32,000 nt of DNA. Origin: an uncultured Candidatus Peribacteria bacterium. Lineage in GTDB: Bacteria > Patescibacteriota > Gracilibacteria > GCA-2401425. The notes beneath the pieces are model-generated. The model was not told the origin of the DNA and ran no database searches. It was given only the letters and a program-made list of their open reading frames with translations. Position 1 is the first letter of the stretch, and every line of letters begins with the position of its first letter. Location: the NCBI GenBank assembly GCA_964466055.1, contig CAYXLW010000005.1:49508-81507 (forward strand), given 5' to 3'. This document shows positions 4,159 to 26,591 of this stretch, one piece after another. Made by a program: the position numbers and the translations under genes.

Positions 4159-5385
4159 TTATCTTATGTATTTTAATAACATACTTCTAGTATGTATTCC
4201 TGCTCCCCATGCCGTTAGTGCAATTATATCACCATCTTTCCATTGTATATTTTCTGTTTTCAACTCTTCTTCAATCTCTAATAAAATTTCTTTAGGGGTA
4301 TTTAATATAGCATATATTAAAAGAGGAATTGAGCTTGAGCTTACATTTCCTTTTTTCATAAAAATAGGAGCTGTTATATTTGGGAATTTAGCTTTTACTT
4401 TTTCAATAATTTTTTCAACAATCACTTTATTAGCTTGATGTGTAAGTAAATGGTCAATATTTTCTATCCCTAAATGATTTGCTAATTCTATTACTCCTTC
4501 ACTCATATCATTTACAGCTCTTCTAAAAGTTGGTTTCCCATTCATTCTAATTTTTGGCTTACCATCAGTATTTTTCCCATCATCGTTAAATAAAACATCT
4601 TCTCCCTTGGCTTCTGTTGTAGGGTTTCCTCTGTCGTCTACAAATTCTCGATAGTACTTTTTTCTTTCGCCAAGAATTTTTGCCCCTTCATGATTTTCTT
4701 TTGTTACAATAGATGCAGTAGCTTGATCTCCAAATAATACACATGTATTTCCATCTGAGAAATCAACTATTCTACTAAGCATATCATTTGTTAAGATAAC
4801 AACATGCTTAAGTTCATCAGAACTATTAAGCATTTCTGCTGCTAAAGAAATACCTCCTATGTATCCATTACAAGCTTCATTAACTATCCCCAAAGCTTTT
4901 AAACTTGTATTTTCAGCTATTCTTTCAAGTGTTGAATTTGCTTTATTGATATCACTTCTAAGTGGCAATTGAGAATTAGAATCAAGTATTGTTCCAGTAG
5001 ACATTATTATCCCAGTATTATTAGAATTAATATCAATATTGCTTTTTTGTTTTAATTGATCAAGCAAATGTTTTATAGCTTCTTCTCCCATTTCTATATG
5101 GGAAGAATTTTTAAATTCCCTATACTGAATTCCTATTTTCTTAAAGAACTCTTCATCGTACCTTTCAAAATTTTTAACATTTATTTTCCACTCAGGATGG
5201 ATTAGCTCTATTAACCAGTCAGGATATTTTTCGCCGTCATCATTTTTTACCCTCGATAAAGCTTCCTTATCAAGTTTAAAATGACGATTCTCAAATCTTA
5301 TGCCAGAAGAACTTAATCCAATTGCTGGGAGTAGCCTAATATCACCATCTGTGTGTTTTTGAAAAGAATCTGGATTGCTGGTCAT
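4159..5385 (-). CDS. 3-oxoacyl-ACP synthase III (FabH/KASIII)-like condensing enzyme with an N-terminal extension of about 110 aa
   Basis: 408-aa ORF with a thiolase-fold catalytic triad context: Cys in EACNGY, His in THQAN, Asn in GNVSSSSIP, and a C-terminal WGAG. Confidence 0.75.
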   Translation of the reverse strand: MTSNPDSFQKHTDGDIRLLPAIGLSSSGIRFENRHFKLDKEALSRVKNDDGEKYPDWLIELIHPEWKINVKNFERYDEEFFKKIGIQYREFKNSSHIEMGEEAIKHLLDQLKQKSNIDINSNNTGIIMSTGTILDSNSQLPLRSDINKANSTLERIAENTSLKALGIVNEACNGYIGGISLAAEMLNSSDELKHVVILTNDMLSRIVDFSDGNTCVLFGDQATASIVTKENHEGAKILGERKKYYREFVDDRGNPTTEAKGEDVLFNDDGKNTDGKPKIRMNGKPTFRRAVNDMSEGVIELANHLGIENIDHLLTHQANKVIVEKIIEKVKAKFPNITAPIFMKKGNVSSSSIPLLIYAILNTPKEILLEIEEELKTENIQWKDGDIIALTAWGAGIHTRSMLLKYIR

Positions 5386-5510: not shown

Positions 5511-5624
5511 ACTCGATCGATAGGCAAAGATTTTGTTTATAGGTAGAGGGAAATATGACTTGAAATAAAACGAAAAAAAAGTACAAATTGTTTGGGGACA
5601 GCTGTACTTTTTAACGTTTTTAAC

Positions 5625-6807
5625 ATGAAAAAGTTCTCAAATTTTGCGCACAATGTCAAAAGTTTTTCAGAAATATTCACGAAGCCCAGTTACAAAATAT
5701 TTAAAGGGATTGTAGAAGCGATGGTCAAAGAAATGGATTACTCGCAATCCAATTTGTCATTGTGTAGCGGAAAAACACTTGGACAAATACAGTATTTTTT
5801 TGCTAAAGCAAAATGGAGTTTTACGAAACTCAATGGATATCGTCTTAGATTTATGAGAAACAAGCCAAACTTCAGGGATAGAAAAAGTGATTATGCGGTA
5901 CTTGATGGTACTGTAACAACAAAAGATAAAGATAGTGAGTTCAAAGGTTTACTATCCGCAGTCTACTCAAACCGAGATAAACGGATCGTAAATGGCATAA
6001 AACTCTTTGGAGGAAGCGTACTGACTCAAGATGGAGTGAAATACATTGTAGACTTTCTTTTCTACATAAAGAGCATCTGGCTGTCAGAAAATCAGGCTTG
6101 GAAAATGTTTGCAAAGAAAGTTGCATCAAAAACTTCTGCATATCTTTTTGTTCTGGATTCTGGATTTAAAAGCCCATATATAATTGAGTTCATCTTTCAT
6201 ACTCTCAAACGTCATTTCCTACTACGTATTGGGAAAAATCAGATATTCCTCATGCAAAATCAGGAAGCCAAAAAATATTCCAAGAAACTAAGAAAACTCT
6301 GGGTTTTCCCAAAGGTTATTCTTTCTTCTTGGCACAAGGTTTTTCCAGAGAATGTTACGGTTATTGTATACCATAGAAATGGATTTCTTGATCCCATTGT
6401 GCTTGTTGCCTCATTGGAAATCACGGAAACACAACAAGCTTTTGATATTGTTCAAATCTACTTCAAAAGATGGAGTATTGAGCAACTTTTTAAAGAGGTG
6501 AAATCTTGGTTTAACTTTGAAAAATTTCGCGTCACTTCTTTGCATGCTCTCGGAAAATTCCTCCATCTGGTTGTCTTTATTCATTCTCTCATGTCTACGT
6601 TATTTTTTGAACTCCAAAAATACACTAAACTCTTTGAGATTATACGCTGAGATTATACGCTTTGTGGTAAAGAAATCCCGTAATATCATTGAGCTTACCG
6701 TGGTCAGTTTGAAACTCTTTTTCCAATCACTTCATTCCATTTGCTTTACCCATCATCCTTGGCTACACAATCACCAAAAAATCATTTTACTCACACACTT
6801 TTTTTAG
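5625..6807 (+). pseudogene. DDE transposase, frameshifted by a 13-bp tandem duplication
   Basis: The likely start is ATG 5625 (MKKFSNF...). YFKRWSIEQLFKEVK fits the Y-(2)-R-(3)-E-(6)-K signature of IS4-type transposases. The frame stops at TGA 6648-6650 inside the duplication and continues in the +1-shifted ORF 6517..6807 (EIIRFVVKK...). Removing one 13-bp copy restores one frame of about 389 aa. Confidence 0.75.
6636..6661. repeat. 13-bp perfect tandem duplication GAGATTATACGCT x2
   Basis: Read directly: 6636-6648 equals 6649-6661. The junction creates the TGA stop. Confidence 0.9.
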
Positions 6808-10958: not shown

Positions 10959-12647
10959 ATGCAAGCAAAATGTACATTATCTGGGGAAATATTTGATGTT
11001 TCTGATCATGAAATTGAACTTCGAAAAAAAATCAATTTTGGAAATACATTGCCGAGCATGTTACCAAAATATCGCTTTCAATACCTTGGAGCTTTTTGGC
11101 CACAGTGGAATCTTCATAAAAGAAATTGTGATAAAACTGGTAAGCCAATTATCTCAATCTTTCGTCCAGATTGCCGATACCCTGTATGGCACAGAGATGA
11201 ATGGATAAAATATAATTCACCTCCATCACAAGATTTTGATTTTTCACGTTCCTTTTTTGAACAAGTAGCGGAGCTTTTCCCAAAATGTCCAATTCCACAT
11301 ATTTTCCAAAGTAATAACCAAAACTGTGAATACACAGATGATTGGTACCATAGTAAAAATTGTTATTTATGTCATTCAGGTCAAAATAATGAAGATTGTA
11401 GATATTGCTATGGATGCGATAGTATAAAGAACGTTCATGGTGGAGTTTTCTCATTCAAATCTGAATTTTGTTACGACATTATTAATTGTAGTAGTTGTTA
11501 CAAAAGTCGTTTTCTTCTAAATTGTAAAAATGTTACAGATTCTGCTTTTTTATATGATTGTAGAGACTGTAGTGATTGTCTTTTTTGCTTCAATCTTCGT
11601 CATAAAAAATACTGTTTTGGAAACCAACAACTAAGTAAAGAAGAATTTGAAGAAAAGAAAAAAGAGTGGAGTTTTTCATCGTATAAAAATTATGAAAAAG
11701 CAAAATTGTACTTTGCTAGAATGATGGTCAAAAAAGCTTGGCATAGAGCTATCCAAATAGATCTGTGTGAAAATTCTTCAGGGAATTTTATCCACCATTG
11801 TAAGGATTGTGAGAACTGTTATATGCTTTCTTATCACGAAGCTTGTGCTAACACAACTTTTTGTGGACCAAATGCTAAATTTATTTTAGATTCAATTGGA
11901 ACGGTTGGTAGCGAACTTTCTTTTATGTGTTCACTTCCTGTTTATTGTTACAATACAATCTTCTGTTTTAGTGTTGATAATTGCAAGTTTGTTGAATACA
12001 GTGCATATCTTCAAAACTGTGAATATTGTTTTGGATGTTGTGGGCTGTTTAGGAAAAAATATTGTATTTTTAATAAACAGTATTCAAAGGAGGAGTATGA
12101 GAAACTAGTTCCAAGAATTCGTGAACACATGGGAAAATTCCCCTCTACCTTTGGGAGAGGGATTAGGGGTGAGGATGAATGGGGACAATTTTTCCCTCAA
12201 AGTATGGCACCTAATCCTTATAATGAAAGTTTTTCAGGATATCACTTTCCTCTTAATTCAGAATCAAGCCAAGAATTTTGGCAAGCTGGTCCATTGGAAA
12301 GAATTAATATGAAAACTGCTGAAATAAATGAGCTTCCAGATTCTCTGGAATCACTTACAGATGAAAAAGAAGAATGGCTTATTACCCAAGTTTTTTGGGA
12401 TGACAAATATCAGCGTCCTTTTCAAATTCAAAAGGATGAGATTAAGTTTATAAAAATAATGAATGCACCTCTTCCTCATTGTTATTACATCAATCGTATT
12501 CAAAGTAATTTTAAATGGATGCCTTTTAATGGAGAGCTTAGGGAGTCTAAATGTGCTAAGTCTGGGAAGATGATCCATACGAATTGGGCAAAAGAGTATG
12601 ATGAAAGAATTTTGAGCGAGGAGGAGTACTTGAAATTAGTGAAATAA
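10959..12647 (+). CDS. modular cysteine-rich repeat protein of unknown function
   Basis: 562-aa ORF with dense CxxCxxC motifs (CRYCYGC, CSSCYKS, CRDCSDCLFC, CKDCENC, CEYCFGCC). It has two internally duplicated Cys-rich blocks, each ending in KKYC(F/I)xNxQxSKEE(F/Y)E. These are flanked by related N- and C-terminal modules. Confidence 0.8.
   Translation: MQAKCTLSGEIFDVSDHEIELRKKINFGNTLPSMLPKYRFQYLGAFWPQWNLHKRNCDKTGKPIISIFRPDCRYPVWHRDEWIKYNSPPSQDFDFSRSFFEQVAELFPKCPIPHIFQSNNQNCEYTDDWYHSKNCYLCHSGQNNEDCRYCYGCDSIKNVHGGVFSFKSEFCYDIINCSSCYKSRFLLNCKNVTDSAFLYDCRDCSDCLFCFNLRHKKYCFGNQQLSKEEFEEKKKEWSFSSYKNYEKAKLYFARMMVKKAWHRAIQIDLCENSSGNFIHHCKDCENCYMLSYHEACANTTFCGPNAKFILDSIGTVGSELSFMCSLPVYCYNTIFCFSVDNCKFVEYSAYLQNCEYCFGCCGLFRKKYCIFNKQYSKEEYEKLVPRIREHMGKFPSTFGRGIRGEDEWGQFFPQSMAPNPYNESFSGYHFPLNSESSQEFWQAGPLERINMKTAEINELPDSLESLTDEKEEWLITQVFWDDKYQRPFQIQKDEIKFIKIMNAPLPHCYYINRIQSNFKWMPFNGELRESKCAKSGKMIHTNWAKEYDERILSEEEYLKLVK
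12140..12174. repeat. GC-rich palindromic mini-element (copy A), embedded in-frame in the Cys-rich CDS
   Basis: CCCCTCT-ACC-TTTGGG-AGAGGG-ATTAGGGGTGAGG. The off-frame translation is SPLPLGEGLGVR; the gene's own frame reads FPSTFGRGIRGEDE. A related inverted copy lies at 30496-30527. Confidence 0.55.
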
Positions 12648-12657
12648 GCTTAAAATG

Positions 12658-12954
12658 TTATTTTTTCATTCGCTTCTCCATTTCATTTAAAATCTCAATC
12701 CACTCAATATTTTTTTCAGCTAGCAGGATCAGTAAGTGGTAAATTAAATCTACACTTTCTTCTACTAATCTCTGTTTATTTTCATGTTTTGCAGCTTTTA
12801 AAAGCTCTTGTGATTCTTCATCAATTTTAGAACAAATTGTTGCCACACCTTCATTGAAAAGAAATGTGGCATAAGAATTATTTGGTAATTTTTTCTTACG
12901 AGTGGCAATTAAACTAATTAATTTATATAAAACATCTCTCTTAGAATTATTCAT
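12658..12954 (-). CDS. hisE: phosphoribosyl-ATP pyrophosphohydrolase (MazG-like)
   Basis: 98-aa ORF. IDEESQELLKAAK...LVEESVDLIYHLLILLAEKNI matches the HisE helical pattern. Confidence 0.8.
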   Translation of the reverse strand: MNNSKRDVLYKLISLIATRKKKLPNNSYATFLFNEGVATICSKIDEESQELLKAAKHENKQRLVEESVDLIYHLLILLAEKNIEWIEILNEMEKRMKK

Positions 12955-13012
12955 ATTTTAAATAGTTATAAAGGTTTAAAAACTAATCATATTAAGGGAA
13001 TAGCAAATTTGT

Positions 13013-13699
13013 TTAATACATAATGCTTCTTACTCCTTTTCGTTTTTTATTTTCTTTTGCATAGAAAACTTTCCCTTTTTTGACAATAGATTTTAATCGT
13101 TTTATTCCTTCACAGATGGCAATTTTCACAGCTTCTTTAGGAGAATCAGCAATAAAAAAAGGAATTCTTTTACGTTCATCTAGGTATTTACCATCGAATA
13201 ATAGAGGTATTATTTTATCCACCCACCCACCAAATCCTCTCAGTAATATGACTGGTACCTGATTTCTATATGCAACAGTCATTTCATTAAGAGTTCCTGC
13301 TCCACCACTAACTGCAATCATGATATCTGAAGATAAGGGCAAGAGATATTCAGGTCCTCCTTCCATCATTCCAGTAGTAATGCCTACTGTATAAATATCA
13401 CCTACGCCAATATCATTAAGCGTATTAAAAAATCCTATAGTTATACTCTTTTTTTTAATACCTGCTTTCGCAACAGTGCTCATAATGCCTCCACCTCCGC
13501 CAGTAACAATTGTAGCACCTTGGTCTCCCAGTAGTTCTCCGATTGTTTTGACAGCTTTAATTAGTCCTTTGGGGCTACGCCATCCTTTTAAGTATTCTTC
13601 AGTCCCAGCACTTCCTATAATGCCAACCTGCAAAATTAATTTTCCAACACCAACACCAACACTTTCTTTGTGTTTATTAGAAATAGATTTTTTAAACAT
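13013..13699 (-). CDS. LOG / TIGR00725-family (lysine-decarboxylase-like Rossmann) protein
   Basis: 228-aa ORF with GIIGSAG, TGGGGGIM and the LOG signature SGGAGTLNE. Confidence 0.75.
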   Translation of the reverse strand: MFKKSISNKHKESVGVGVGKLILQVGIIGSAGTEEYLKGWRSPKGLIKAVKTIGELLGDQGATIVTGGGGGIMSTVAKAGIKKKSITIGFFNTLNDIGVGDIYTVGITTGMMEGGPEYLLPLSSDIMIAVSGGAGTLNEMTVAYRNQVPVILLRGFGGWVDKIIPLLFDGKYLDERKRIPFFIADSPKEAVKIAICEGIKRLKSIVKKGKVFYAKENKKRKGVRSIMY

Positions 13700-13712
13700 A
13701 ATACAAGTTGAA

Positions 13713-14780
13713 TTATAGTAATTTTATAATGCCTTTTGGATTTTTAGGTAATTTTTTATGAACCCTTTTAAGTTCATTTTCTATCTCTTCCATTTTTTTT
13801 CGTTTCCATCCATAAGCTAACGAATGATTATGTGCATAAATGTGTACACTAGATTCTTTGATTTTATATAAAGGAACCAATCCATTAGATTTTAGTGATT
13901 TTCCTGTTTCGGCTAAATCTACAATAGCATCTGCCAGAAAAGGAGCATGAGATTCGGTTGATCCATGAGAAGTAATCACTTGAATAGGTATGTTTTTTTC
14001 AACAAAAAATTTCTTTGTAATATTAGGTAATTCAGTAGATATTTTTTTATTTTTAAAGTCTTTCAGGTTTTTATATTCAGAAATATGATTTTTTGGAACA
14101 GCTAAAACCCACAAAACTTTACCTCGTCCTCTCTCATTATAATCTAGATCTCCCATGTCAGTAACATTAGAGCCATATTCTTCTATAAGATCACTGCCAA
14201 CCAGTCCCATATCAACCTGCCCATCCTCAATAAGCCTTGGGATCTCTTTAGCTCTAACAACTAGTAGTTTTATTTTATCTTCATTTCTTATTGAGGGCTT
14301 TAAACATTGTTTTCCTCTAAGCTCTAGTTGATATTTTGTAAGATTAAATAGCATAATTGTAGAGGAGTATAAAGATCCAGATGGGATAGCCAAAGTTACT
14401 ATGTCCGAATATTTCTCATAAACTTTTTCTGGATCGAATACTTTTTCACCAGTAGTTACCCATTTATTACCATTTTTAGCTTTATAAAAACAACTTCTAT
14501 AGCCATCTTCAACAGCACCACCGATTTGATTAACTTTAATAAGCAAAGAATCCTCATCATTATCAGTATAAATTTCTTTTACAATCTGAAAATTTCCAGA
14601 TTCTTCGCCTTTCATCCAAAGTCGTTTTTTCTTACGGCTGTAGTAATGTACCTTGCCAGTTTTTTTAGTCCATTTCCATGCCGTCTTATCCATAAAACCA
14701 ACCATTAATACCTCTTGGTTTTTATAATCTTGGATTACTACTGGCAATAAACCATTCATTTTTTGAAAATTGAGACTCAT
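13713..14780 (-). CDS. fusion of a phosphoribosyl-AMP cyclohydrolase (HisI)-like domain and short-form ATP phosphoribosyltransferase (HisG)
   Basis: 355-aa ORF. Residues about 8-105 match HisI (LLPVVIQD...VLMVGFM...SRKKKRLWMKGEESGNFQ...GYRSCFY). Residues about 125-355 match HisG, including the signature ADAIVDLAETGKSLKSNGL. Confidence 0.8.
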   Translation of the reverse strand: MSLNFQKMNGLLPVVIQDYKNQEVLMVGFMDKTAWKWTKKTGKVHYYSRKKKRLWMKGEESGNFQIVKEIYTDNDEDSLLIKVNQIGGAVEDGYRSCFYKAKNGNKWVTTGEKVFDPEKVYEKYSDIVTLAIPSGSLYSSTIMLFNLTKYQLELRGKQCLKPSIRNEDKIKLLVVRAKEIPRLIEDGQVDMGLVGSDLIEEYGSNVTDMGDLDYNERGRGKVLWVLAVPKNHISEYKNLKDFKNKKISTELPNITKKFFVEKNIPIQVITSHGSTESHAPFLADAIVDLAETGKSLKSNGLVPLYKIKESSVHIYAHNHSLAYGWKRKKMEEIENELKRVHKKLPKNPKGIIKLL

Positions 14781-15113
14781 AGCTATTTTACATTAAAACG
14801 TTCGAAGAAGTTTTAACGAGTCTTACAAATCTCGAAAAAATAATATCAAAGCCAAAATAAATTAACAAGATTTATTTGTCTATCATAAATTCAAGCATTA
14901 ATTGTACCATCGGAGATACTCAGAAATAACCTTAGGGATTTTGTAGTTTAATCCTTTTCGTGGTGTCTATTATTCAATTTATCCTCAAATTCCTTAATTT
15001 ACTAGATACTAGATTTCTTCATTAAAATGAAAGTTAGATTTTTGCTTATTATTTTTTATGTAATTAAATCTTTTATTAGATTCCAGGCAAACTGGAATGA
15101 CCGTACTTTGTTT

Positions 15114-15797
15114 TCACAATAGCCCTTTCAAAGAAAAACTATAAAAGCCATCTTCTCCAATAATAATATGATCATCAAAAAATAAACCAAACTTGCAAGC
15201 CTCTTCCTTAATCTGAACAGTAAAATTAACATCATCCTCAGAAGGCTCTTTAATACCATGCGGATGATTATGAGCAAGATAAAAATTCTTAGCATTCAAC
15301 CGAATAGGATTATAAAGAATAGAAGCAATAGTAACAGAAAGCACATTAGATTCACCTTGAGCTACAAGTCCGCTATAAAGAACACGTCGCTGACTATCTA
15401 AACAAATAATACGCAATTGCTCAAAAGTTGTTCTTTTCTTAAAATCATCCTTAATATATTCATAAAACTGCTCTGAAGATTTTATTTTGGTATTATCTCT
15501 TTTGTTAATACGTCTAAAATATTCCCCAATAGCAAGAATGGTGCAAGATTTAACAAGAGGAAGTCCAGTATTATCTTGAATTTCTTCAAGTGTAGTAAAC
15601 TGAAATAATCCTCTTGTTCCAAATTCAGAAATCAACATTTTAGATAAATCTCCAACATTCATATTTTTGTATCCAGTGCCAAAAATAACAGATAAAAGCT
15701 CAGAATCATTTAGACTTTCAGCTCCATATGATTCAATCTTTTCACGCGGTTTCTGTTTCTCTGGATGCTCAGAAAAAGATATAAGCTTAATTGCCAT
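15114..15797 (-). CDS. radC: RadC-family JAB/MPN domain protein
   Basis: 227-aa ORF with an N-terminal helix-hairpin-helix-like ELLSVIFGTG and the JAMM motif HNHPHG...PSEDD. Confidence 0.85.
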   Translation of the reverse strand: MAIKLISFSEHPEKQKPREKIESYGAESLNDSELLSVIFGTGYKNMNVGDLSKMLISEFGTRGLFQFTTLEEIQDNTGLPLVKSCTILAIGEYFRRINKRDNTKIKSSEQFYEYIKDDFKKRTTFEQLRIICLDSQRRVLYSGLVAQGESNVLSVTIASILYNPIRLNAKNFYLAHNHPHGIKEPSEDDVNFTVQIKEEACKFGLFFDDHIIIGEDGFYSFSLKGLL

Positions 15798-15831
15798 TTA
15801 ATTAATCAAAATTAAAAACTAGCAATTAAAA

Positions 15832-16245
15832 TTATTCCTTATTGTTTGTCATATTTTTGTAAAAAGAAATATCTTGTTTAAACTTTTTTATAATTTCTTC
15901 AGATGCACCTTTTTTTCTAAGTGCATCTTCCAACTCCTCAGCTATTTCATCAATAGTCTTTTCAGAATCTTTAGATCCATTATAAGGCTCAGCATTTTGA
16001 GAAATTTTTAAATTATACTTTTCAGCTAATTCTTTACTTCGCCAAACGGCAATCTTATTTTTTGCTTCTTTGGTACTCATGCCATATCCATGAGTTAATA
16101 TTTTTAAAAAAGTTTCATCTTTAGCCTTAATTTTACCGTTTTCATATGATGATAAATTTCCAGTCCCATATCCTACCTTAATAGAAAGAGCTTTAAGCGT
16201 GAGCTTATGTTTTATGCGCAACTTTTTTAATTCACCATAAACCAT
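15832..16245 (-). CDS. XRE-family helix-turn-helix transcriptional regulator
   Basis: 137-aa ORF. LKKLRIKHKLTLKALSIKVGYGTGNLSSYENGK is a typical HTH_3 segment. Confidence 0.8.
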   Translation of the reverse strand: MVYGELKKLRIKHKLTLKALSIKVGYGTGNLSSYENGKIKAKDETFLKILTHGYGMSTKEAKNKIAVWRSKELAEKYNLKISQNAEPYNGSKDSEKTIDEIAEELEDALRKKGASEEIIKKFKQDISFYKNMTNNKE

Positions 16246-18119: not shown

Positions 18120-18175
18120 TCGCAGGCTTTTTGCTCCAGAGTATTTTAAAGCAATTTTTATATCATTATTACTTT

Positions 18176-18592
18176 ATGTTACAACCAAAAAAACAAAAGT
18201 ATCGGAAAGTTTTCAGAGGAAGGTCTGCTCTTTGCGGAAAAGCGAAAGGGAATACGTCTCTTGTGTTTGGTGATTTTGGTTTAAAGGTAATAACAGCAGG
18301 AGAAATAACTGCTCGTCAGATAGAGTCTGCTCGTAAAGCAATTAAGAATTATCTTGATCGTCGTGGAAATTTATCAATTATGGTATTTCCTCATAAAGTG
18401 CTTACTCGTAAATCTGCAGAAGTGCCAATGGGGTCAGGGAAGGGTGCTCCAGATCATTATGTGTCACCAGTGTGTCCAGGTAGAATAATTTTTGAGCTTG
18501 GTGGGGTGAATGAAGCAGAGGCTCGAGAGGCTTTCAGGTTGGGGATGCATAAGCTTCCATTTGTGTGTAAATTTGTTACTAAAGAAATATAA
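18176..18592 (+). CDS. rplP: 50S ribosomal protein L16
   Basis: MLQPKKQKYRKVFRGR is the canonical L16 N-terminus, so the internal ATG at 18176 was chosen rather than the TTG-extended track ORF. Confidence 0.95.
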   Translation: MLQPKKQKYRKVFRGRSALCGKAKGNTSLVFGDFGLKVITAGEITARQIESARKAIKNYLDRRGNLSIMVFPHKVLTRKSAEVPMGSGKGAPDHYVSPVCPGRIIFELGGVNEAEAREAFRLGMHKLPFVCKFVTKEI

Positions 18593-18593
18593 A

Positions 18594-18800
18594 ATGTACT
18601 CAATTCAAGATTTAAAAAAGATGGCAGAAAAAGACTTACAGATAGAGTTAGAAAAAACTCGAATCAACTCTGGTAAGCTCAAATTTTTAATTAAAGCTGG
18701 ACAAGAAAAGGCAGTGCATAATTTGAAAAACTTGAAAAAATATCTTGCTAGAATTCTTACTACTATAAAAGAAGTTAAACTCACTATTAATGAAAACTAA
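18594..18800 (+). CDS. rpmC: 50S ribosomal protein L29
   Basis: Position after L16, size and the helical KDLQIEL...KNLKK pattern. The start is set at the in-frame ATG at 18594. Confidence 0.85.
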   Translation: MYSIQDLKKMAEKDLQIELEKTRINSGKLKFLIKAGQEKAVHNLKNLKKYLARILTTIKEVKLTINEN

Positions 18801-19047
18801 AGAAGTAATTGTTGTTTCAACAAAAATGGCTAAGACTCTTGTAGTTAAATTAGACGTATTTAAAAAACACCCTATATACCATAAAGAGTACAAGAGATCT
18901 GTAAAGTTTTACGTACATACAGAAGATGAAAAAAAATTTGAAGAAGGGCAGAAGATAACTATCGTAGAAACTAGACCAATAAGCAAGCTTAAGAGGTGGA
19001 AAGTTTTAGAGGGTGGAGTAAAAGAATTAATAAAGGAGGCTATATAA
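18790..19047 (+). CDS. rpsQ: 30S ribosomal protein S17
   Basis: 85-aa ORF with VVSTKMAKTLVV...HPIYHK...ETRPISK. Confidence 0.9.
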   Translation: MKTKEVIVVSTKMAKTLVVKLDVFKKHPIYHKEYKRSVKFYVHTEDEKKFEEGQKITIVETRPISKLKRWKVLEGGVKELIKEAI

Positions 19048-19074
19048 TTAAAATAAATTAATATTATTAAATAA

Positions 19075-19443
19075 ATGATCCAGACACAAACACGATTGGT
19101 TGTAGCTGACAATACAGGGGCGAAGGCTGCTATGTGTATTAAAGTATTAGGAGGATCAAAAAGGAGGTATGCAGGAGTTGGTGATCCTATAGTGATTACT
19201 GTTAAAAAAGCTGCTCCAAAAGGTGTGGTTAAGAAGAAGTCAGTACAGCGTGCAGTTGTGGTTCGCACTAAAAAACAAATAAAACGAAAAGATGGTTCAT
19301 TTTTGAGATTTGACGATAATGCGTGTGTAATTATTTCAAAGGATGGAGTCCCAAGAGGAACTAGAATTTTTGGACCCATTGCTCGTGAACTTAGAGTTAA
19401 AGGTTATCAAAAAATTATTTCTCAGGCCCCAGAAGTATTATAA
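19075..19443 (+). CDS. rplN: 50S ribosomal protein L14
   Basis: [17 protein letters not shown] is the canonical L14 start. Confidence 0.95.
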
Positions 19444-19455
19444 TTAAAATTCATA

Positions 19456-19809
19456 ATGGCAGTTCTTACTAAAGACGAAGTTAAAATTATAGCCGGCAAA
19501 GACAAAGGAAAGACAGGTGTTGTCAAAAGGGTTATTAAAAAACAGGATAATAACTCTAAGAAGAAGGTTATTGTTAAGGTTGTTGTTACTGGTGTTAATT
19601 TTGTAACAAAGCACATAAAAGGGAAGGAGGGGCAGTCGGGACAAAAGATTCAAGTTGAGGCTCCAATGCATATTTCAAATGTTATGCTTATTGACCCAAA
19701 GACAAAAGAGCGGACACGAGTTGGATATACAATATCTGAATCTGGAGAGAAACATAGAGTAGCAAAAAAATCAGGAGAAATCCTTCATAATAAGGCAAAG
19801 AAAAAATAA
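19456..19809 (+). CDS. rplX: 50S ribosomal protein L24
   Basis: KOW motif IIAGKDKGKTGVV, and its position in the cluster. Confidence 0.9.
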   Translation: MAVLTKDEVKIIAGKDKGKTGVVKRVIKKQDNNSKKKVIVKVVVTGVNFVTKHIKGKEGQSGQKIQVEAPMHISNVMLIDPKTKERTRVGYTISESGEKHRVAKKSGEILHNKAKKK

Positions 19810-19822
19810 ATAATCAACATAT

Positions 19823-20362
19823 ATGTCACTTTCTAAAGATTATCGGTCGAAAATACTTAAATCAGTGAAGGAAAAGCTGGGAATGAAGAATATTAATGAA
19901 GTTCCAAGAATTGAAAAAGTAGTAATAAACATTGGAATTGGGAGTTATATTTCGAGAAAAGATAAAGACTATTCATCTTTGGTTGATAGAATTACAGTTA
20001 TCGCTGGTCAAAAACCAGTAGTGATTAAAGCTAAAAAGTCAGTATCTAACTTTAAATTAAGAAAAGGAGTTCCGAATGGAATAAGTGTTACGCTTAGAGG
20101 AAAAAGGCAGTTAGACTTTTTAGAGCGACTTATTAATATCGCATTGCCACGAACTAGAGATTTCAGGGGATTATCTAAAAAAGCATTTGATGGAAAGGGG
20201 AATTATTCAATGGGAATAAAAGAAGTTACAATATTTCCATCGGTTAGAGTAGATGACTTAACGAAAATGCATGGACTTCAAGTTAATATCTCAACAACAG
20301 CTAAAACAGATAAAGAGGCTAAAGTGTTGCTTGAAGAAATAGGAATTCCTTTTGTTAAATAA
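19823..20362 (+). CDS. rplE: 50S ribosomal protein L5
   Basis: 179 aa; NINEVPRIEKVVINIG is typical of L5. Confidence 0.95.
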   Translation: MSLSKDYRSKILKSVKEKLGMKNINEVPRIEKVVINIGIGSYISRKDKDYSSLVDRITVIAGQKPVVIKAKKSVSNFKLRKGVPNGISVTLRGKRQLDFLERLINIALPRTRDFRGLSKKAFDGKGNYSMGIKEVTIFPSVRVDDLTKMHGLQVNISTTAKTDKEAKVLLEEIGIPFVK

Positions 20363-20372
20363 TTAAATTTAC

Positions 20373-20597
20373 ATGGCTCGAAAAGCATTACAAGTAAAAG
20401 CGGCAAAACGAAAGAAAAAATATTTGGCAGATATTGCAGCAGGAAGGACTCCTGAGTTTGCAGTACGAGTTTATAACAGGTGCCAAATTACAGGAAGAAG
20501 ACATGGCTATATGAGATTTTTTGGGATGTCACGTATTATGTTTAGAAAATTAGCTTCTCAAGGAATGATTCCAGGGGTTACAAAATCAAGTTGGTAG
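20373..20597 (+). CDS. rpsN: 30S ribosomal protein S14 (74 aa, zinc-less)
   Basis: The C-terminal [39 protein letters not shown] aligns to S14 but keeps only one of the four Zn cysteines. Confidence 0.9.
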
Positions 20598-20622
20598 TTT
20601 TAAATTATAAATTATAGAATTT

Positions 20623-21006
20623 ATGCATTCAGATCCGATATCAGATATGGCAACACAAATGAGAAATGCTTTAATGGCAGGTCATAAGTCTGTAAATGTT
20701 CCGTACTCTAAATTAAAGGAAGCAATAATTGTTTTACTAAAAACTGAAAAATTTATAAAAGATTATAAAATAGAGAAAATAGATAAATTTGAAGAAATTA
20801 AAATTATTTTTGATGAAGATAAAGAGATTAGGAATATTAAGAAAATTTCTAAGCCAGGACAAAGGATTTACGTTAAATCTTCAGAAATGAAATCAGTAAA
20901 AAATGGAATGGGAATTGCCGTAGTTTCAACGTCAAATGGAATTATGCCTGGGTATAAGGCATACAAGGCAGGGATAGGGGGAGAAATTTTACTTGAGATA
21001 TATTAA
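20623..21006 (+). CDS. rpsH: 30S ribosomal protein S8
   Basis: DPISDMATQMRNA is the canonical S8 start. Confidence 0.95.
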   Translation: MHSDPISDMATQMRNALMAGHKSVNVPYSKLKEAIIVLLKTEKFIKDYKIEKIDKFEEIKIIFDEDKEIRNIKKISKPGQRIYVKSSEMKSVKNGMGIAVVSTSNGIMPGYKAYKAGIGGEILLEIY

Positions 21007-21030
21007 TATAAAATAATTAATTATTAAAGC

Positions 21031-21579
21031 ATGTCACGAATTGGAAAACTGCCGATTCAAATCCCTTCAGGGGTAGTTGTAACTATAGATAATAAACTTG
21101 TTACAGTTAAAGGTCCAAAAGGAGAATTGTCATATACACATCATGATCTAATCAAAGTTGAAATTACTGAAACAGATGTGGTAGTTACTAAAGTAAACGA
21201 TGAAAGAATGTCGAGATCTTTACATGGCTTGACCAGAACTTTAATTGCAAACATGGTGGAAGGTGTTACAAAAGGATTTGAAAAACGTCTTGAACTACAT
21301 GGAGTAGGATATAGAGCACAAGCAAATGGAACAAAAATAAATCTTACACTAGGGTTCTCTCATCCAGTTGAAATGATAGCTCCAGACGGAATACTGGTTT
21401 TGATGAATGAAAAAGAAAAAAATGAAATTATTATTTCAGGAATAGACAAACAATCCGTAGGACAGTTCTCAGCAAAAATTAGATCTTTGAAAAAGCCTGA
21501 GCCTTATAAAGGTAAAGGAATACGTTATAAAGGGGAATATGTAAGAAGAAAGGCGGGTAAGGCTGCAAAATCTAAATAA
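21031..21579 (+). CDS. rplF: 50S ribosomal protein L6
   Basis: MSRIGKLPIQIPSGV is the canonical L6 start. Confidence 0.95.
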   Translation: MSRIGKLPIQIPSGVVVTIDNKLVTVKGPKGELSYTHHDLIKVEITETDVVVTKVNDERMSRSLHGLTRTLIANMVEGVTKGFEKRLELHGVGYRAQANGTKINLTLGFSHPVEMIAPDGILVLMNEKEKNEIIISGIDKQSVGQFSAKIRSLKKPEPYKGKGIRYKGEYVRRKAGKAAKSK

Positions 21580-21603
21580 CAATTATTAAATCATTTATAA
21601 AGA

Positions 21604-21945
21604 ATGACACAGACAAAAAAAGTTATTTCTCGGCAAAGAAGAAAGCAAAGAATAAGAAAGAAAATCTTTGGAACTGAACTAAAGCCAAGATTGTCAATAT
21701 ACAAATCAAATGTAGCTATTTATGCACAGTTGATAGATGATACAAAAGGAGTAACTTTAGTGGCAGCTTCTTCAATTAAAGAAAAAAAATCAAATATTGA
21801 AGCAGCAAAAAAAGTTGGTGCAGAGCTTGCAAAAAAAGCAAAAGACAAAAAAATAACTTCTTGTGTATTTGATCGCAATGGACTTTCTTTCCATGGAGGA
21901 GTAGAGGCTTTTGCAGAAGAAGCGAGAAAAGAGATAAAATTTTAA
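21604..21945 (+). CDS. rplR: 50S ribosomal protein L18
   Basis: RKQRIRKKI...PRLSIYKSN...YAQLIDD pattern. Confidence 0.9.
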   Translation: MTQTKKVISRQRRKQRIRKKIFGTELKPRLSIYKSNVAIYAQLIDDTKGVTLVAASSIKEKKSNIEAAKKVGAELAKKAKDKKITSCVFDRNGLSFHGGVEAFAEEARKEIKF

Positions 21946-21962
21946 TTTAACTTAAATTAACT

Positions 21963-22559
21963 GTGGTAAAAAGAACAAAAGATGCTGGGCAAAAATTCCA
22001 AAAAGAGAAAAAAGAATTTGAAGAAGAACTTCTTCATATCGCACGTGTTACACGTGTAGTAAAAGGAGGGCGAAGACTCAGATTCCGTGCAACAGTTGCT
22101 ATAGGTGATAAAAAGGGGAAGGTTGCTCTTGGCGTAGGAAAATCTCTAGAAGTAGCTACAGCCGTACAAAAAGCTATCGCAAAAGCAAAAAAAGCTATAA
22201 TTAAAGTTCCTTTAACAGAAAGTCTTTCAATCCCTTATGAAGTTAAAATCAAATTTAAAGCAGCAAAGCTTATTATGATGCCAGCTTCAGAAGGAACTGG
22301 AGTTAAGGCTGGAGGAGTAGTAAGAAAAATTTTTGATGTGGCAGGTATTCATAATGTAATTGCGAAACGATTAGGATCTACAAATCCGTTAGTAAACGCT
22401 CAGGCAACAATGCTTGCATTGAATGAGTTGATTGCATTAGCTGAAATGAACGAAGATAAAAAAAATCAAAAGAAAATCAAATTAGAAGAACAAGCTAAAA
22501 ATAAAGTAGAAAAGAATAAGAAAACAGAAGTTGTGGAAAAATTAGAGGAAGTTGCTTAG
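21963..22559 (+). CDS. rpsE: 30S ribosomal protein S5 (GTG start, Lys/Glu-rich C-terminal extension)
   Basis: RVTRVVKGGRRLRFRATVAIGD is the S5 core. The only in-frame start upstream of that core is GTG 21963. Confidence 0.9.
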   Translation: MVKRTKDAGQKFQKEKKEFEEELLHIARVTRVVKGGRRLRFRATVAIGDKKGKVALGVGKSLEVATAVQKAIAKAKKAIIKVPLTESLSIPYEVKIKFKAAKLIMMPASEGTGVKAGGVVRKIFDVAGIHNVIAKRLGSTNPLVNAQATMLALNELIALAEMNEDKKNQKKIKLEEQAKNKVEKNKKTEVVEKLEEVA

Positions 22560-22616
22560 AAAAATATTTTATAAAACCAAATATAGGAGCATTAATCATT
22601 AATTTAAATTTTTGTT

Positions 22617-23123
22617 ATGTTACAACATGAGCTCAAGCCAAATTCAGGAGCTAAAAAGAATCGGAAAAGAGTAGGAAGAGGAAATGCCTCAGGAACAGGT
22701 ACTTTTTCAGGTAGGGGGTGTAAAGGGCAGGGGTCACGTTCTGGAGGAAGTCTTCGTCCAGGATTTGAAGGAGGACAAACTCCCTTATACAAAAGACTTC
22801 CTAAATTGAAAGGGTTTAAGAATTATTTTAGGAAAGAATTTCAAATAGTAAATGTTTCAAGTCTAAAAGATATTAAGGCGAAAGTGATTACTTCAGAAGA
22901 GCTACTTAATGCTGGAGTTATAAGAAAGAAAAATCTCCCAGTGAAAATCTTAGGAAATGGAGATATAAGCATAGCAGTTACTGTTAGAGTTGATAAGATA
23001 TCTAAAATAGCTAGAGAAAAAATAGAAAAAGCAGGAGGAAAGGTAGAGCAAATAGTTAATGAAGTTGAAAAAGCACCTAAACTAGCAAAAGAAAAAATAA
23101 TGAAAGTAAAAACTAAGAAGTAA
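22617..23123 (+). CDS. rplO: 50S ribosomal protein L15
   Basis: RVGRGNASGTGTFSGRGCKGQGSRSG is the L15 glycine-rich N-terminus. Only 57 nt separate it from rpsE, so no L30 gene fits between them. Confidence 0.9.
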   Translation: MLQHELKPNSGAKKNRKRVGRGNASGTGTFSGRGCKGQGSRSGGSLRPGFEGGQTPLYKRLPKLKGFKNYFRKEFQIVNVSSLKDIKAKVITSEELLNAGVIRKKNLPVKILGNGDISIAVTVRVDKISKIAREKIEKAGGKVEQIVNEVEKAPKLAKEKIMKVKTKK

Positions 23124-23169
23124 TAAATGCTCTATATATTAATTTATAATTTAAAATTCCTAAAATAAT

Positions 23170-23625
23170 ATGTTAAAACTTAGACTGCAAAGAAAGGGGA
23201 GGAAAAGAATGCCAATTTTTAAAATAGTTGTTGCTGAACATACAATGCCTGTAAAAGGGAAGTATATTGAAAAAATAGGGGGTTTTATTATGGGAAGAAA
23301 AGATGAAACACTTGTTATGAAAAAAGATAGAGCATTACATTGGCTTTCAGTTGGAGCTAAGCCGTCTCAAACTGTTGCTATATTACTTCTGTCTCAAGGA
23401 ATTAAAGAAGCAGAAAAATTTATAAAGACAAGAAAGCAGATGCCAAGTAAGGTAGAGCAAAAAAAGAAAGAAGAAGCTGAAGCTATGAAAAAAGCAAAGG
23501 AGGAAGCTGAAAAAATAGAAGCAGAAAAGCCAGTAGAAGATATTGCTAATGAAGAAGAGAAAAAAGATGAAGGAAAAGCTGATTCTGAAGTGCCTTCTGA
23601 AGAGGTAGAACAAGCAGGGGCATAA
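23170..23625 (+). CDS. rpsP: 30S ribosomal protein S16 with a Lys/Glu-rich extension of about 65 aa
   Basis: MLKLRLQRKGRKRMPIFKIVVAE is the canonical S16 start. Confidence 0.9.
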   Translation: MLKLRLQRKGRKRMPIFKIVVAEHTMPVKGKYIEKIGGFIMGRKDETLVMKKDRALHWLSVGAKPSQTVAILLLSQGIKEAEKFIKTRKQMPSKVEQKKKEEAEAMKKAKEEAEKIEAEKPVEDIANEEEKKDEGKADSEVPSEEVEQAGA

Positions 23626-24046: not shown

Positions 24047-24409
24047 ATGAATGTTTTTGATGGAAATATTTCTTTCGCCCAAATCGCAAATTTTGCCATA
24101 GCTTTTGTTCTTGTTGCAGGAACAATACTTTCGATCGCTTATATTGCTAAAGGAGGTATTTCTTTCATTACTTCAGGAGGAGAGGAGGAAAACATTAAGG
24201 CTGCAGTTCATACTGTTAGATATGCTATTGTTGGATTAATCGTAATTTTTTTATCTATTTTAATAATAAAAGTTATTGGGTCCATTTTTGGACTTGATCT
24301 TTTGTCTTATCTATCAATGGAGAAGATAAAGGGTATGATAGATTTAATTATAGAAAGACTTAAAGCCACTCCCAATTCTGGTTCAGAAATCCAAGGGATA
24401 CTTGATTAG
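24047..24409 (+). CDS. small two-TM membrane protein, VirB2/TrbC pilin-like (tentative)
   Basis: 120 aa with two long hydrophobic helices separated by a short polar loop. It lies immediately upstream of a VirB4-like ATPase. Confidence 0.45.
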   Translation: MNVFDGNISFAQIANFAIAFVLVAGTILSIAYIAKGGISFITSGGEEENIKAAVHTVRYAIVGLIVIFLSILIIKVIGSIFGLDLLSYLSMEKIKGMIDLIIERLKATPNSGSEIQGILD

Positions 24410-24464
24410 TCGTTTATAATTTATAAAAATCAGAAAAAACTCACCACAAATAATTATTAAATTA

Positions 24465-26591
24465 ATGACCGACGACCAAAAAAATATTGCAGACTTACTT
24501 GGAGAAGAAGTAAAAAATATTGTTCATGACACTTCAGCTTATCAAAAGGAGGAGCCTGTAGCTCAAATGAAAGTAGAAGTAAAAAATGAAGAAATTATTT
24601 CTATGGAAACTAAAAAACAGGGTTTCTTTCAAAAATTAATAAGCCTATTTTTTTCAAAAAACAAGTCTCAAAAAATAGATTTAGTGACACCTTCTGCAAA
24701 AGTAGAAATTACAGACACCTCTGCATCATCTATTCCTGAAAATAAAGAAATTAAAGAGATTGCGGAAGTTTATTTGAATGAAAATATGACAAAAAAAGAA
24801 AAGCAAGAAGAATTAGAAAAATTGAAAGAAGCCGAAAGAAAATATTATGAAGGAATGATGAGTATCCGTGATATGATTGCTCCTTCATCTATTGAAGTTA
24901 AAGGGGGCTATATGAAATTAGGAGATACGTTTGCAAGGTCATTTTTTGTATTTGCATATCCTAGATTTATTGAAGCTAACTGGTTAGCTCCTATAATAAA
25001 TCTTGATACGACTATAGACATATCTTGCTTTATCTATCCCTCTCAATCAGATGAAATGCTTAGAGTTTTAAGAAAAAAAGTGGCACAGATGCACTCTTCT
25101 ATGAGAATGAACGCAGAGAAAGGAAGAGTAAGAGATCCTGCTCTTGAAACTGCATTACAAGATGCGGAAGAACTTAGAAATCAACTACAAAGAGGAGAAG
25201 AAAAATTTTTCCACTTAGGTTTGTATCTTACCATCTATGCAAAAACAGAGGAAAAATTAGACAAGATGTCAACTGAAATAGAATCAATTCTTGGTGGTAA
25301 AATGGTGTTAACCAAAAGAGCTACTTTGCAAATGGAGCATGGGTTTAACTCTTGTTTACCTATAGCCTTAGATGAAATGCAGATTATAAGAAATATGAAT
25401 ACATCACCGCTTTCGACTACATTTCCATTTTCATCATCAGAGCTAACTTCCGATAAAGGGATTCTCTATGGATTGAATCGTCATAATGATTCGTTAATTA
25501 TATTTGATAGATTTTCTCTAGAAAATGCCAATTCAGTTGTTTTTGCAAAATCTGGAGCTGGGAAATCTTACGCAGTAAAATTAGAAATCCTTAGACTTAT
25601 GATGTTAGGAGTTGATGTTATTGTCATTGATCCTGAAAAAGAATATAAAGATTTATGTGATACAGTTGGAGGAACTTACATGAATATTTCACTAAATTCA
25701 TCGGAACGTGTAAATCCTTTTGATCTTCCTTATGGATTAAAAGATGATGATTTAAAACCTGGTGATTTACTTAGAAGTGCTATTATAAATCTTCATGGGT
25801 TATTTAATCTTATGTTAGGGAAATTAAATTCAGAGGAAGAATCTTTAATGGACAGAGCCTTACTTGATTGCTATGCCCTTAAAGGAATTACACTTGAGAC
25901 TGAAAATCCTGGAGATTTCCCTGCACCTACAATGGAAGAACTTTACGATATTTTAACATCAATGAAAGGTGCTGAAAATTTAGCGATGCGTTTACAAAAA
26001 TATACTACTGGCTCTTTTGCAGGAATTTTTAATCAAGCAACAAATGTAGATTTATCTAGTGGGATAATTGTGTTTAATATACGTGACTTAGAAGATGAAC
26101 TAAGGCCAATTGCAACTTATGTTATTTTAAATTTTATATGGAATAAAGTTAGATCATCATTAAAAAAACGCATACTTGTTATGGATGAAGCTTGGACAAT
26201 GATGCAACATGATGATAGTGCTAAGTTTCTTTATGGGCTTGTAAAACGAGCAAGAAAATATTGGCTAGGTGTAACTACTATTACACAAGATGTTGAAGAC
26301 TTTCTTCGTTCTCCTTATGGGAAACCTGTTATTACAAACTCATCTATGCAACTTCTTCTTAAGCAATCGTCAACTGCGGTTGAAGAATTAACAAAAATTT
26401 TCAATTTAACAGAAGGTGAAGGATATATGTTGCTTAATTCAGAAATTGGACAAGGTTTATTTTTTGCAGGGAATAAACATGTTGCTTGCCAAATTATAGC
26501 CTCTTATAGTGAAGACAAAGTTATAACAACTAATCCCGAGGAAATTTCTAATAAACAACAAGATGATTTGGAATATGAATCGGCAAATTAG
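24465..26591 (+). CDS. VirB4/TraE-like type IV secretion ATPase
   Basis: 708 aa with Walker A (AKSGAGKSY), VIVIDPEKEY, RVNPFDL, Walker B (LVMDEAW) and a C-terminal TTITQDVEDF. Confidence 0.8.
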   Translation: MTDDQKNIADLLGEEVKNIVHDTSAYQKEEPVAQMKVEVKNEEIISMETKKQGFFQKLISLFFSKNKSQKIDLVTPSAKVEITDTSASSIPENKEIKEIAEVYLNENMTKKEKQEELEKLKEAERKYYEGMMSIRDMIAPSSIEVKGGYMKLGDTFARSFFVFAYPRFIEANWLAPIINLDTTIDISCFIYPSQSDEMLRVLRKKVAQMHSSMRMNAEKGRVRDPALETALQDAEELRNQLQRGEEKFFHLGLYLTIYAKTEEKLDKMSTEIESILGGKMVLTKRATLQMEHGFNSCLPIALDEMQIIRNMNTSPLSTTFPFSSSELTSDKGILYGLNRHNDSLIIFDRFSLENANSVVFAKSGAGKSYAVKLEILRLMMLGVDVIVIDPEKEYKDLCDTVGGTYMNISLNSSERVNPFDLPYGLKDDDLKPGDLLRSAIINLHGLFNLMLGKLNSEEESLMDRALLDCYALKGITLETENPGDFPAPTMEELYDILTSMKGAENLAMRLQKYTTGSFAGIFNQATNVDLSSGIIVFNIRDLEDELRPIATYVILNFIWNKVRSSLKKRILVMDEAWTMMQHDDSAKFLYGLVKRARKYWLGVTTITQDVEDFLRSPYGKPVITNSSMQLLLKQSSTAVEELTKIFNLTEGEGYMLLNSEIGQGLFFAGNKHVACQIIASYSEDKVITTNPEEISNKQQDDLEYESAN

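Follow-up and report, generated by a model that had tools for sequence, protein, structure and literature searches.

Does a set of genes for the first three steps of histidine biosynthesis (HisG, HisE and HisI) necessarily serve to make histidine? The question is raised by a minus-strand operon in a 32,000-nt stretch of DNA (hereafter the window; contig CAYXLW010000005.1, positions 49,508 to 81,507, assembly GCA_964466055.1) from an uncultured Candidatus Peribacteria bacterium, in which a HisI-like domain fused to a short-form HisG is followed by a protein of SLOG cluster 4 and by HisE. An earlier note had proposed that N1-(5-phosphoribosyl)-ATP (PR-ATP) and the corresponding AMP derivative (PR-AMP) are diverted here from histidine synthesis, and this stays the best reading: with about even confidence, we take the operon to encode a self-contained non-histidine nucleotide pathway, in which both compounds would be intermediates on the way to a purine-derived product. 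The case for a non-histidine function rests on the replacement of the HisI active site, the dedicated SLOG partner, the range of hosts and the occurrence of related genes among tailoring enzymes. Judged by gene conservation, the core of the module is two genes, those for the remodelled HisI-like::HisG fusion and for the SLOG cluster-4 partner.

All three open reading frames (ORFs) lie on the minus strand as described before, in the order fusion gene (13713–14780, 355 aa), SLOG partner gene (13013–13699, 228 aa) and hisE, for phosphoribosyl-ATP pyrophosphohydrolase (12658–12954, 98 aa). They are separated by gaps of 13 nt (fusion/SLOG) and 58 nt (SLOG/hisE), with no terminator-like sites between the genes. 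Pfam and NCBIfam searches agree on the HisI-like, short-form HisG and HisE domains that had been called from motifs, with scores above the curated thresholds and far beyond chance. The fusion matched PF01502 (PRA-CH) at aa 26–99 (E 5.9e-26, 90.6 bits against a threshold of 27), the cyclohydrolase model NF000768 (134.7 bits, cut-off 126), PF01634 (HisG) at aa 176–338 (E 1.6e-35, 122.8 bits) and TIGR00070 (hisG) over aa 128–314 (140.2 bits, equivalog cut-off 75.75), while the HisE ORF matched PF01503 (PRA-PH; 68 bits against 21.3) and TIGR03188 (84.1 bits against 42.7). Since the fusion ORF lacks the HisG_C domain (PF08029), its HisG part is of the short form. The three families are thus those of histidine steps 1 to 3, and they retain the HisG loop for 5-phosphoribosyl pyrophosphate (PRPP), the HisE acidic metal-binding motifs (EESQE and EESVD, both intact), and the Asp triad and phosphoribosyl-binding motifs of HisI. 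The usual histidine arrangement, however, has HisI fused to HisE and short HisG accompanied by HisZ, whereas here HisI is fused to HisG, HisG_C is absent and no HisZ was found among the window ORFs scanned. Relative to histidine steps 1 to 3, the operon adds a replaced HisI centre, a clade-specific C-terminal tail on the fusion and a dedicated SLOG partner.

The HisI-like domain (PRA-CH fold; aa 1–123, 14412–14780, minus strand) passes without a linker into HisG. It aligns with residues 13–135 of Methanothermobacter thermoautotrophicus HisI (1ZPS; E 2.9e-28), in which the motif DCDGD...GGACHTGYRSCF corresponds to DNDED...GGAVEDGYRSCF in the window protein. Only one of the three zinc-ligand cysteines (Cys93, Cys109 and Cys116 in M. 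thermoautotrophicus numbering) is kept, as Cys97. The position of Cys93 is occupied by Asn74 (codon AAT, 14559–14561, minus strand), and codons GTT GAA GAT (14505–14513, minus strand), read from the DNA and placed by the alignment as was the first, encode Val90-Glu91-Asp92 in place of Cys109-His110-Thr111, by which a zinc ligand becomes Val, the general base His110 becomes Glu and Thr111 becomes Asp. In cyclohydrolases the Cys, His and Asp residues are described as universally conserved, and the nucleophile is a zinc-bound water activated by the His (PMC8102479). Retained in the HisI-like domain, and invariant in its clade, are the Asp triad D73/D75/D77 (the Mg site), SRK at 48–50 and W55-x-KGE-x-SG (WMKGEESG in the window), the roles of the triad and of the phosphoribosyl-binding motifs being taken from the same work (PMC8102479). 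The earlier note missed this change; with two of three zinc cysteines and the general base replaced, the domain is not an ordinary cyclohydrolase.

This replacement is shared by a clade of fusions. Among 246 non-redundant HisI domains gathered in this analysis, the general-base position is Glu in 47 of the 51 clade members and Asp in the other 4, whereas His occupies it in 168 of the 174 stand-alone HisI or HisIE proteins, the six exceptions being fragments or misclassified members of the fusion clade. The Cys93 position is likewise Asn in 47 of the 51. The active-site patterns of the clade are NVEDC (36 members), NCEDC (6), other N..E variants (5) and CCDxC (4), and they can be arranged as a series from CCDxC (4) through NCE(D/E)C (8) to NVEDC and its near variants (39). 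Because the CCDxC members retain all three zinc cysteines yet already have Asp for His, the general base probably changed before the zinc ligands were lost, and the centre appears to have been replaced stepwise, from CCH to CCD, NCE and NVE. As the replacing residues are themselves conserved, and the rest of the domain strongly so, the comparison argues for neofunctionalisation and not decay.

The HisG catalytic core (ATP phosphoribosyltransferase, short form, delimited by TIGR00070; aa 124–314, 13839–14411, minus strand) aligns with the solved HisG structures 2VD3 and 1Z7M, and its PRPP-loop motif is DLAETGKS. It is followed by a segment specific to the clade (aa 315–355, 13713–13838, minus strand), in which Y323, W325, K326, R327 and L344-P345 are invariant and a helix is predicted at 324–341. 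The motif [YF]xWK[RK] of this segment was found in all 51 Glu/Asp-type fusions. There are 57 invariant columns across the fusion in the clade alignment, and an AlphaFold model of the window protein reached a predicted local distance difference test score (pLDDT) of 84 and a predicted template modelling score of 0.81. The fusion is as unusual as had been supposed: in a set of 1.84 billion clustered proteins, only some 15 full-length examples were found. A scan of metagenomes, in which 80 loci were kept, returned almost entirely ordinary hisI genes with intact active sites, mostly followed by a separate hisG; only three of these loci had fusions (L015, L016 and L019). The order hisI then separate hisG is probably the arrangement from which the fusion arose.

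The protein encoded next to the fusion had been assigned to the LOG/TIGR00725 family. Because it scores below both cut-offs (LOG family PF03641, 17.3 bits against a gathering score of 27; TIGR00725, 74.4 bits against 106.9), it is not a formal member of either and is better described as 'SLOG cluster 4' (PF18306, LDcluster4; 85.4 bits against 26.3, E 3.9e-24). Its close homologues form 46 clusters at 59–81% identity, after which identity drops sharply to 42% and then 32%. Twenty-one SLOG homologues share contigs with fusion homologues, as judged by comparing the two hit lists and equating contigs of identical nucleotide span. In the window and in seven related loci (L010, L011, L014, L015, L095, L098 and L099) the SLOG gene directly follows the fusion gene, its domain is fused onto the C-terminus of the fusion in P0036 (L007-9), and an orthologue (E 1.5e-50) lies within the same Microcoleus gene cluster as the fusion. 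The predicted conservation of this gene beside the fusion in relatives is therefore borne out by many loci in which the two are adjacent or fused, and we conclude from gene order that the SLOG protein is a dedicated partner of the fusion.

The clade is found in bacteria of the candidate phyla radiation (CPR), in an archaeon of the DPANN group and in Microcoleus; close homologues carry the labels Parcubacteria or Magasanikbacteria. The archaeal copy (L001, 9044–10132), on contig CAZWNN010000018.1 of a metagenome-assembled genome labelled Woesearchaeota, is 65% identical to the window fusion and shares its contig with genes for the TATA-binding protein and an archaeal ATP-dependent DNA ligase and with a long, perhaps intron-containing tRNA gene. 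Such identity between archaeal and bacterial fusions points to recent transfer between domains of life. In Microcoleus sp. B5-C4 (L005, 3127–16931, contig JAUBTW010000021.1) and in L006 the fusion belongs to a natural-product-like cluster beside a phage-type integrase, comprising genes for a SLOG4::glycosyltransferase-2 (GT2) fusion, radical S-adenosylmethionine (SAM), GT4, PhyH-like, WD40, carbamoyltransferase, leucine-rich repeat and NifU proteins and a second SLOG4 protein. The CCDxC sub-clade (L012, 1038–10156; L097, 5157–10509), with its three zinc cysteines and Asp for the general-base His, lacks the SLOG gene and has radical SAM genes instead: its neighbours encode a MoaA-like radical SAM protein, a B12-binding radical SAM protein and a 325-aa protein (with a weak HhH-GPD-like match in L012), to which L012 adds carbamoyltransferase, glyoxalase-type and thymidylate-kinase-like genes. 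In L099 (617–10386) a SAM-dependent small-molecule methyltransferase domain is fused ahead of the HisI-like::HisG protein, within a same-strand row of AIR-synthase-related, PPDK_N, transketolase, phosphoenolpyruvate-utilising domain, fusion, SLOG4 and class II fructose-bisphosphate (FBP) aldolase genes; a TPMT-like methyltransferase and a His_Phos_1 phosphatase are encoded nearby.

A pathway consistent with these features can be proposed. By family membership, i) the HisG part would join ATP and PRPP to give PR-ATP, and ii) HisE would remove pyrophosphate to leave PR-AMP, a step that in relatives could be supplied by a Nudix gene (L095), a small HD hydrolase (L010) or an unlinked gene. iii) Since the binding residues and the Mg site are kept, the HisI-like domain would bind PR-AMP, and its anatomy suggests that it would process this compound differently from ordinary HisI, whether by a zinc-independent ring opening, by another attack at C6 such as a deamination, or by merely holding the ligand. 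iv) The SLOG partner would then act on or bind the product, the preferred possibility being a LOG-like removal of ribose 5-phosphate that leaves a modified purine base or nucleotide; LOG enzymes act on N6-modified AMP, the N6 position being next to the N1 that HisG modifies. The released ribose 5-phosphate might be recycled by a PRPP-synthetase (Prs)-like enzyme encoded beside SLOG in relatives. This divergent protein (281–290 aa; TIGR01251, 94–113 bits against a cut-off of 113) is encoded after the SLOG gene in L010, L014 and L095 and after a 172-aa gene in L096, and in L001 a well-scoring Prs gene is found close to the module. The divergent protein might supply PRPP specifically to the module or be a phosphoribosyltransferase with another substrate. 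A gene of the histidine-phosphatase family near the module in L010, L096 and L099 might, more doubtfully, dephosphorylate the product. The end product would be a purine-derived small molecule, which relatives could decorate by means of methyltransferase, radical SAM, carbamoyltransferase and glycosyltransferase enzymes. Its role could be that of a specialised metabolite or signal, as favoured by the methyltransferase fusion and the tailoring clusters, or the module could run a cycle converting adenine to inosine nucleotides (A to I), as favoured by the housekeeping contexts and the Prs link.

Several observations weigh against this pathway. The Asn/Glu/Asp site might be merely a zinc-independent version of the same cyclohydrolase. 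A complete histidine pathway elsewhere in the genome would be compatible with what was seen, his genes having been sought in the 32-kb window and the related loci only. HisE was not found by phmmer in 16 related loci. The position of the SLOG gene is occupied by an unrelated protein in L001 (173 aa) and L096 (172/173 aa), and L016 has neither this gene nor the SLOG gene. Finally, the second catalytic residue of LOG, Arg99 of CgLOG in the motif MxxRK (PMC4979012), aligns with a Gly in the conserved MxEGGPE loop of the SLOG subfamily (MMEGGPE in the window), and the SLOG protein is nearer, by sequence and by fold, to non-catalytic carriers of the molybdenum cofactor (Moco) than to LOG enzymes.

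Two of these points bear on candidates that were rejected. The 172/173-aa gene of L001 and L096 was considered as a degenerate SLOG gene, its 'SDDIVCAGLSNGVFWEM' resembling the SLOG motif, but hhalign gave a probability of 0.7% (E 0.086). HisE was considered as a conserved member of the module, as in the four-domain neighbourhood of the earlier note; a database search turned up no more than 5 close homologues, of which none shares a contig with the fusion, and HisE is peculiar to this lineage, the Prs-like gene being the commoner third gene.

How far the SLOG protein resembles LOG enzymes bears on the choice of mechanism. It has the Rossmann-like SLOG fold in common with LOG (PF03641), as well as the motifs GGGxG and GGxGTxxE with their terminal catalytic Glu: GGGGG and SGGAGTLNE are present, the latter with Ser for the Pro of the LOG motif PGGxGTxxE, and the motif Gly, Thr and terminal Glu139 are invariant across the subfamily, so that the phosphate-binding GGxGT is retained. 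It differs from LOG in scoring under the Pfam gathering score and in the Arg-to-Gly change in the EGGPE loop. The best structural matches of its model (pLDDT 82) are TM1055, the Rippkaea Moco carrier protein (RoMCP) and the Chlamydomonas Moco carrier protein (CrMCP), ahead of LOG enzymes, and these three, all members of SLOG cluster 4, are also its nearest solved relatives in sequence searches (TM1055, 1RCU, E 1.6e-18, TM 0.87; RoMCP, 6Y01, E 7e-13; CrMCP, 2IZ5, E 1.6e-5). RoMCP has been shown experimentally to be a non-catalytic binder and carrier (PMC7470044). Moco carriers, however, have a pterin phosphate as their ligand and show no linkage to his-type genes, whereas the window subfamily travels with the fusion and has its own N- and C-terminal extensions and EGGPE loop. 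As the LOG Glu motif is kept, the Arg is gone and the nearest relatives are non-catalytic, both roles stay live. Of the LOG-type hydrolysis suggested before, the motif with its Glu stands and the catalytic Arg does not, which leaves it as one of two options: we would put hydrolysis of an N-glycosidic bond at somewhat short of an even chance, and hold a non-catalytic binding, regulatory or carrier subunit to be nearly as probable.

Extended to the whole operon, the second option gives the best surviving alternative, which we consider unlikely but not negligible. The SLOG protein would be a non-enzymatic subunit of the short HisG, either a substitute for HisZ or HisG_C that senses a nucleotide end product or a shelter for a labile intermediate, and the chemistry would be confined to HisG, HisE and the HisI-like domain. 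Besides the loss of the Arg and the ranking of RoMCP and CrMCP over LOG, this accords with P0036, in which SLOG sits at the HisG C-terminus, the site of the regulatory domain of long-form HisG, and with the nearly one-to-one co-occurrence of fusion and SLOG, each with its own conserved C-terminal tail. The absence of a nearby HisZ, already pointed out from the window, extends to the related loci: no HisZ-like (tRNA-synt_His) domain was found among the scanned ORFs of the window or in any related locus examined. On the other hand, the GGxGT..E motif and the strictly conserved acidic EGGPE loop would equally suit catalysis, the second SLOG4 domain of Microcoleus, being fused to a glycosyltransferase, looks enzymatic, and without a further enzyme the operon would stop at a compound of the PR-AMP or ProFAR (the ring-opened product of ordinary HisI) type, of no obvious use.

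The diverted pathway with an enzymatic SLOG step must also be set against a salvage cycle, in which N1-phosphoribosylation would activate the adenine C6, the HisI-like domain and SLOG would give IMP or 5-aminoimidazole-4-carboxamide ribonucleotide (AICAR) plus ribose 5-phosphate, and the Prs-like enzyme would remake PRPP. Organisms living on scavenged nucleotides would in this way turn A into I and hence into G. The Prs-like gene beside the module in 4–5 loci fits such a cycle, as do the strong conservation of the module (59–81% identity), usually among housekeeping genes, its purine-related neighbours (PfkB and S-adenosylhomocysteine hydrolase in L011, another phosphoribosyltransferase in L095), the copy amid transketolase and FBP aldolase genes in L099, and the decay of ProFAR to AICAR in vitro (PMC3485032). 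The cycle would, however, spend several ATP equivalents where a single deaminase suffices, it leaves the methyltransferase fusion and the tailoring enzymes of relatives with larger genomes unexplained, and no purH, guaB or guaA is linked to the module. We regard it as improbable.

Ordinary histidine biosynthesis would require the fusion to be the only HisG and HisI of the cell, working with a zinc-independent site, with HisE for step 2, the remaining his genes elsewhere and SLOG as a regulator or bystander. As had been claimed, no HisA, HisF, HisH, HisB, HisC, HisD or HisZ domain occurs among the 27 window ORFs scanned (left out were five short ORFs of the ribosomal-protein operon and two antisense ORFs that are likely spurious). 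Much the same holds, though, for control loci: among 98 ORFs within 3.5 kb of 15 ordinary hisI-hisG pairs, no HisA/F, IGPD or HisD domain was found, and Aminotran_1_2 was found 5 times. Because ordinary pairs also lack other recognisable his genes nearby, local absence is uninformative; we dropped it as evidence, and the argument from an 'orphan operon' is weak. Histidine synthesis is also consistent with three his domains above curated thresholds, with PR-ATP as the sole known substrate of HisE, and with a metal swap as proposed in paralogues of zinc enzymes (PMC2770081). Moreover, canonical HisI-HisG fusions exist. In 12 other fusions without the [YF]xWK[RK] tail, the general-base His is kept in 9; the canonical ones (for example P0179, P0185, P0172 and P0138) have the domain order of the window fusion, HisI then HisG, but unlike the clade they retain Cys and Cys-His in the active site and have no tail. 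They are presumably true bifunctional histidine enzymes in a rarely described arrangement. Against histidine synthesis, the change of His to Asp is already seen in members with all three zinc cysteines, which places the change in chemistry before that in metal; an extra copy lies in a cyanobacterial natural-product-like cluster, and others beside radical SAM genes; and no hisA/F/H/B/D/Z domain was listed in about 190 kb flanking the clade loci. The hosts of the clade, furthermore, include CPR and DPANN organisms, groups that as a rule do without amino-acid biosynthesis and are not expected to make histidine. We therefore consider this explanation quite improbable.

Canonical-site fusions were also seen in other lineages (P0179, P0185, P0172, P0138, P0216 and P0247), some of them 388–460 aa long, with room for a C-terminal regulatory domain.

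A role in conflict or signalling, with a PR-ATP-derived nucleotide as second messenger or toxin/antitoxin-like metabolite and SLOG as its sensor as in Thoeris ThsA or TRPM2, seems very improbable, for although SLOG domains do sense signals derived from ADP-ribose (PMC9503650), the protein has a weak match to the prokaryotic TRPM-type SLOG family, the module has been transferred between bacteria and archaea, PR-AMP resembles an opened cyclic ADP-ribose (see below) and the window copy adjoins RadC, XRE regulator, transposase and ParB-methylase genes, there is no effector domain on the SLOG protein or encoded beside it, most loci have housekeeping flanks and conservation is unusually high for a defence gene. 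A known anti-phage defence system was rejected, as none of the PADLOC-DB 2.0 models matched the three operon proteins at E<=0.001 and no copies of the fusion clade were found on viral contigs.

For the favoured diversion of PR-ATP and PR-AMP there is a precedent in PenA, a HisG homologue recruited to pentostatin synthesis (PMC12648386). In both cases a homologue of ATP phosphoribosyltransferase starts, or would start, a purine-derived specialised pathway, and relatives of the window gene lie in natural-product-like clusters. The pen clusters, however, combine a stand-alone PenA with a short-chain dehydrogenase/reductase (PenB) and the SAICAR-synthetase-like PenC, where the window has a fused remodelled HisI and SLOG instead. 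In the literature searched we came across neither a HisI-HisG fusion whose catalytic centre is replaced nor a link between HisG and a SLOG protein, and nothing relevant came of searches that paired HisG or PR-ATP with SLOG/LOG, LDcluster4/TIGR00725 or CPR/DPANN.

Formally, opening the pyrophosphate of cyclic ADP-ribose gives PR-AMP, and on this ground an N1-glycosyl purine nucleotide, nucleoside or base is a possible product. Carried to its end, this leads to a proposal that is a long shot: the module would turn ATP and PRPP directly, with no need of NAD, into an N1-ribosylated purine compound of a class not known before, which SLOG would release or carry. CPR bacteria and DPANN archaea, with their tiny genomes and with a module exchanged between the two domains of life, would direct the compound at their hosts, be it as signal, as cofactor or as antimetabolite, and larger bacteria would elaborate the scaffold by radical SAM enzymes, carbamoyltransferases and glycosyltransferases.

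Whatever its product, the module has consequences for annotation. Because its genes pass curated thresholds, automated annotation would label them as histidine biosynthesis and so assign to CPR and DPANN genomes part of a pathway that they probably do not run. What the data show is a compact and strongly conserved module, with a rebuilt HisI fused to HisG, a private SLOG protein and often a private Prs-like gene, which ultra-small bacteria and archaea have in common and which recurs in natural-product-like clusters. Should its chemistry prove new, the histidine pathway would have a second documented exit besides that to pentostatin/coformycin, part of SLOG cluster 4 would gain its first function, and little-known organisms would be given a metabolic trait that can be tested. 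The series of HisI centres is, in addition, a clean case for studying the replacement of a metalloenzyme site.

The region upstream of the operon (14781–15113, 333 nt) presumably holds its promoter, and promoter-like hexamers occur at 14868–14840, at a count no higher than expected from shuffled sequence. In the window and in 10 related loci no Rfam riboswitch or leader scored above the gathering threshold, and nothing credible appeared at E<=5 in 12400–15300. The window has a G+C content of about 31% and encodes a ribosomal-protein operon (18131–23625), S1, HflX, RNase Y and a VirB4-type ATPase, which fits a bacterium of the CPR type. Genes of the mobile-element type flank the his-type operon, namely a ParB_N::N6/N4 DNA methylase (11–1303), a DDE_Tnp_1 transposase (5592–6650), and RadC with an XRE-type regulator (15114–16245); the last two are directly upstream of the operon. 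The flanks of the other loci are of the housekeeping kind. A type IV secretion pilin-like gene and a gene for a VirB4/TraG-type ATPase (24047–26591) follow the final ribosomal-protein operon gene at a distance of about 420 nt. At 4159–5385 (minus strand) a 408-aa protein like 3-ketoacyl-ACP synthase III (FabH type) is encoded, although fatty-acid synthesis is usually missing in such genomes. Finally, a 562-aa protein with 36 cysteines and no Pfam, NCBIfam or PADLOC match (10959–12647, plus strand) is encoded convergently to the operon, ending 10 nt from the hisE stop. Its homologue in L016 (2250–4073, minus strand; phmmer E 3.9e-49) occupies the same convergent place, directly after the HisI-like::HisG fusion where the SLOG gene is absent, which could reflect either a linked function or shared synteny.

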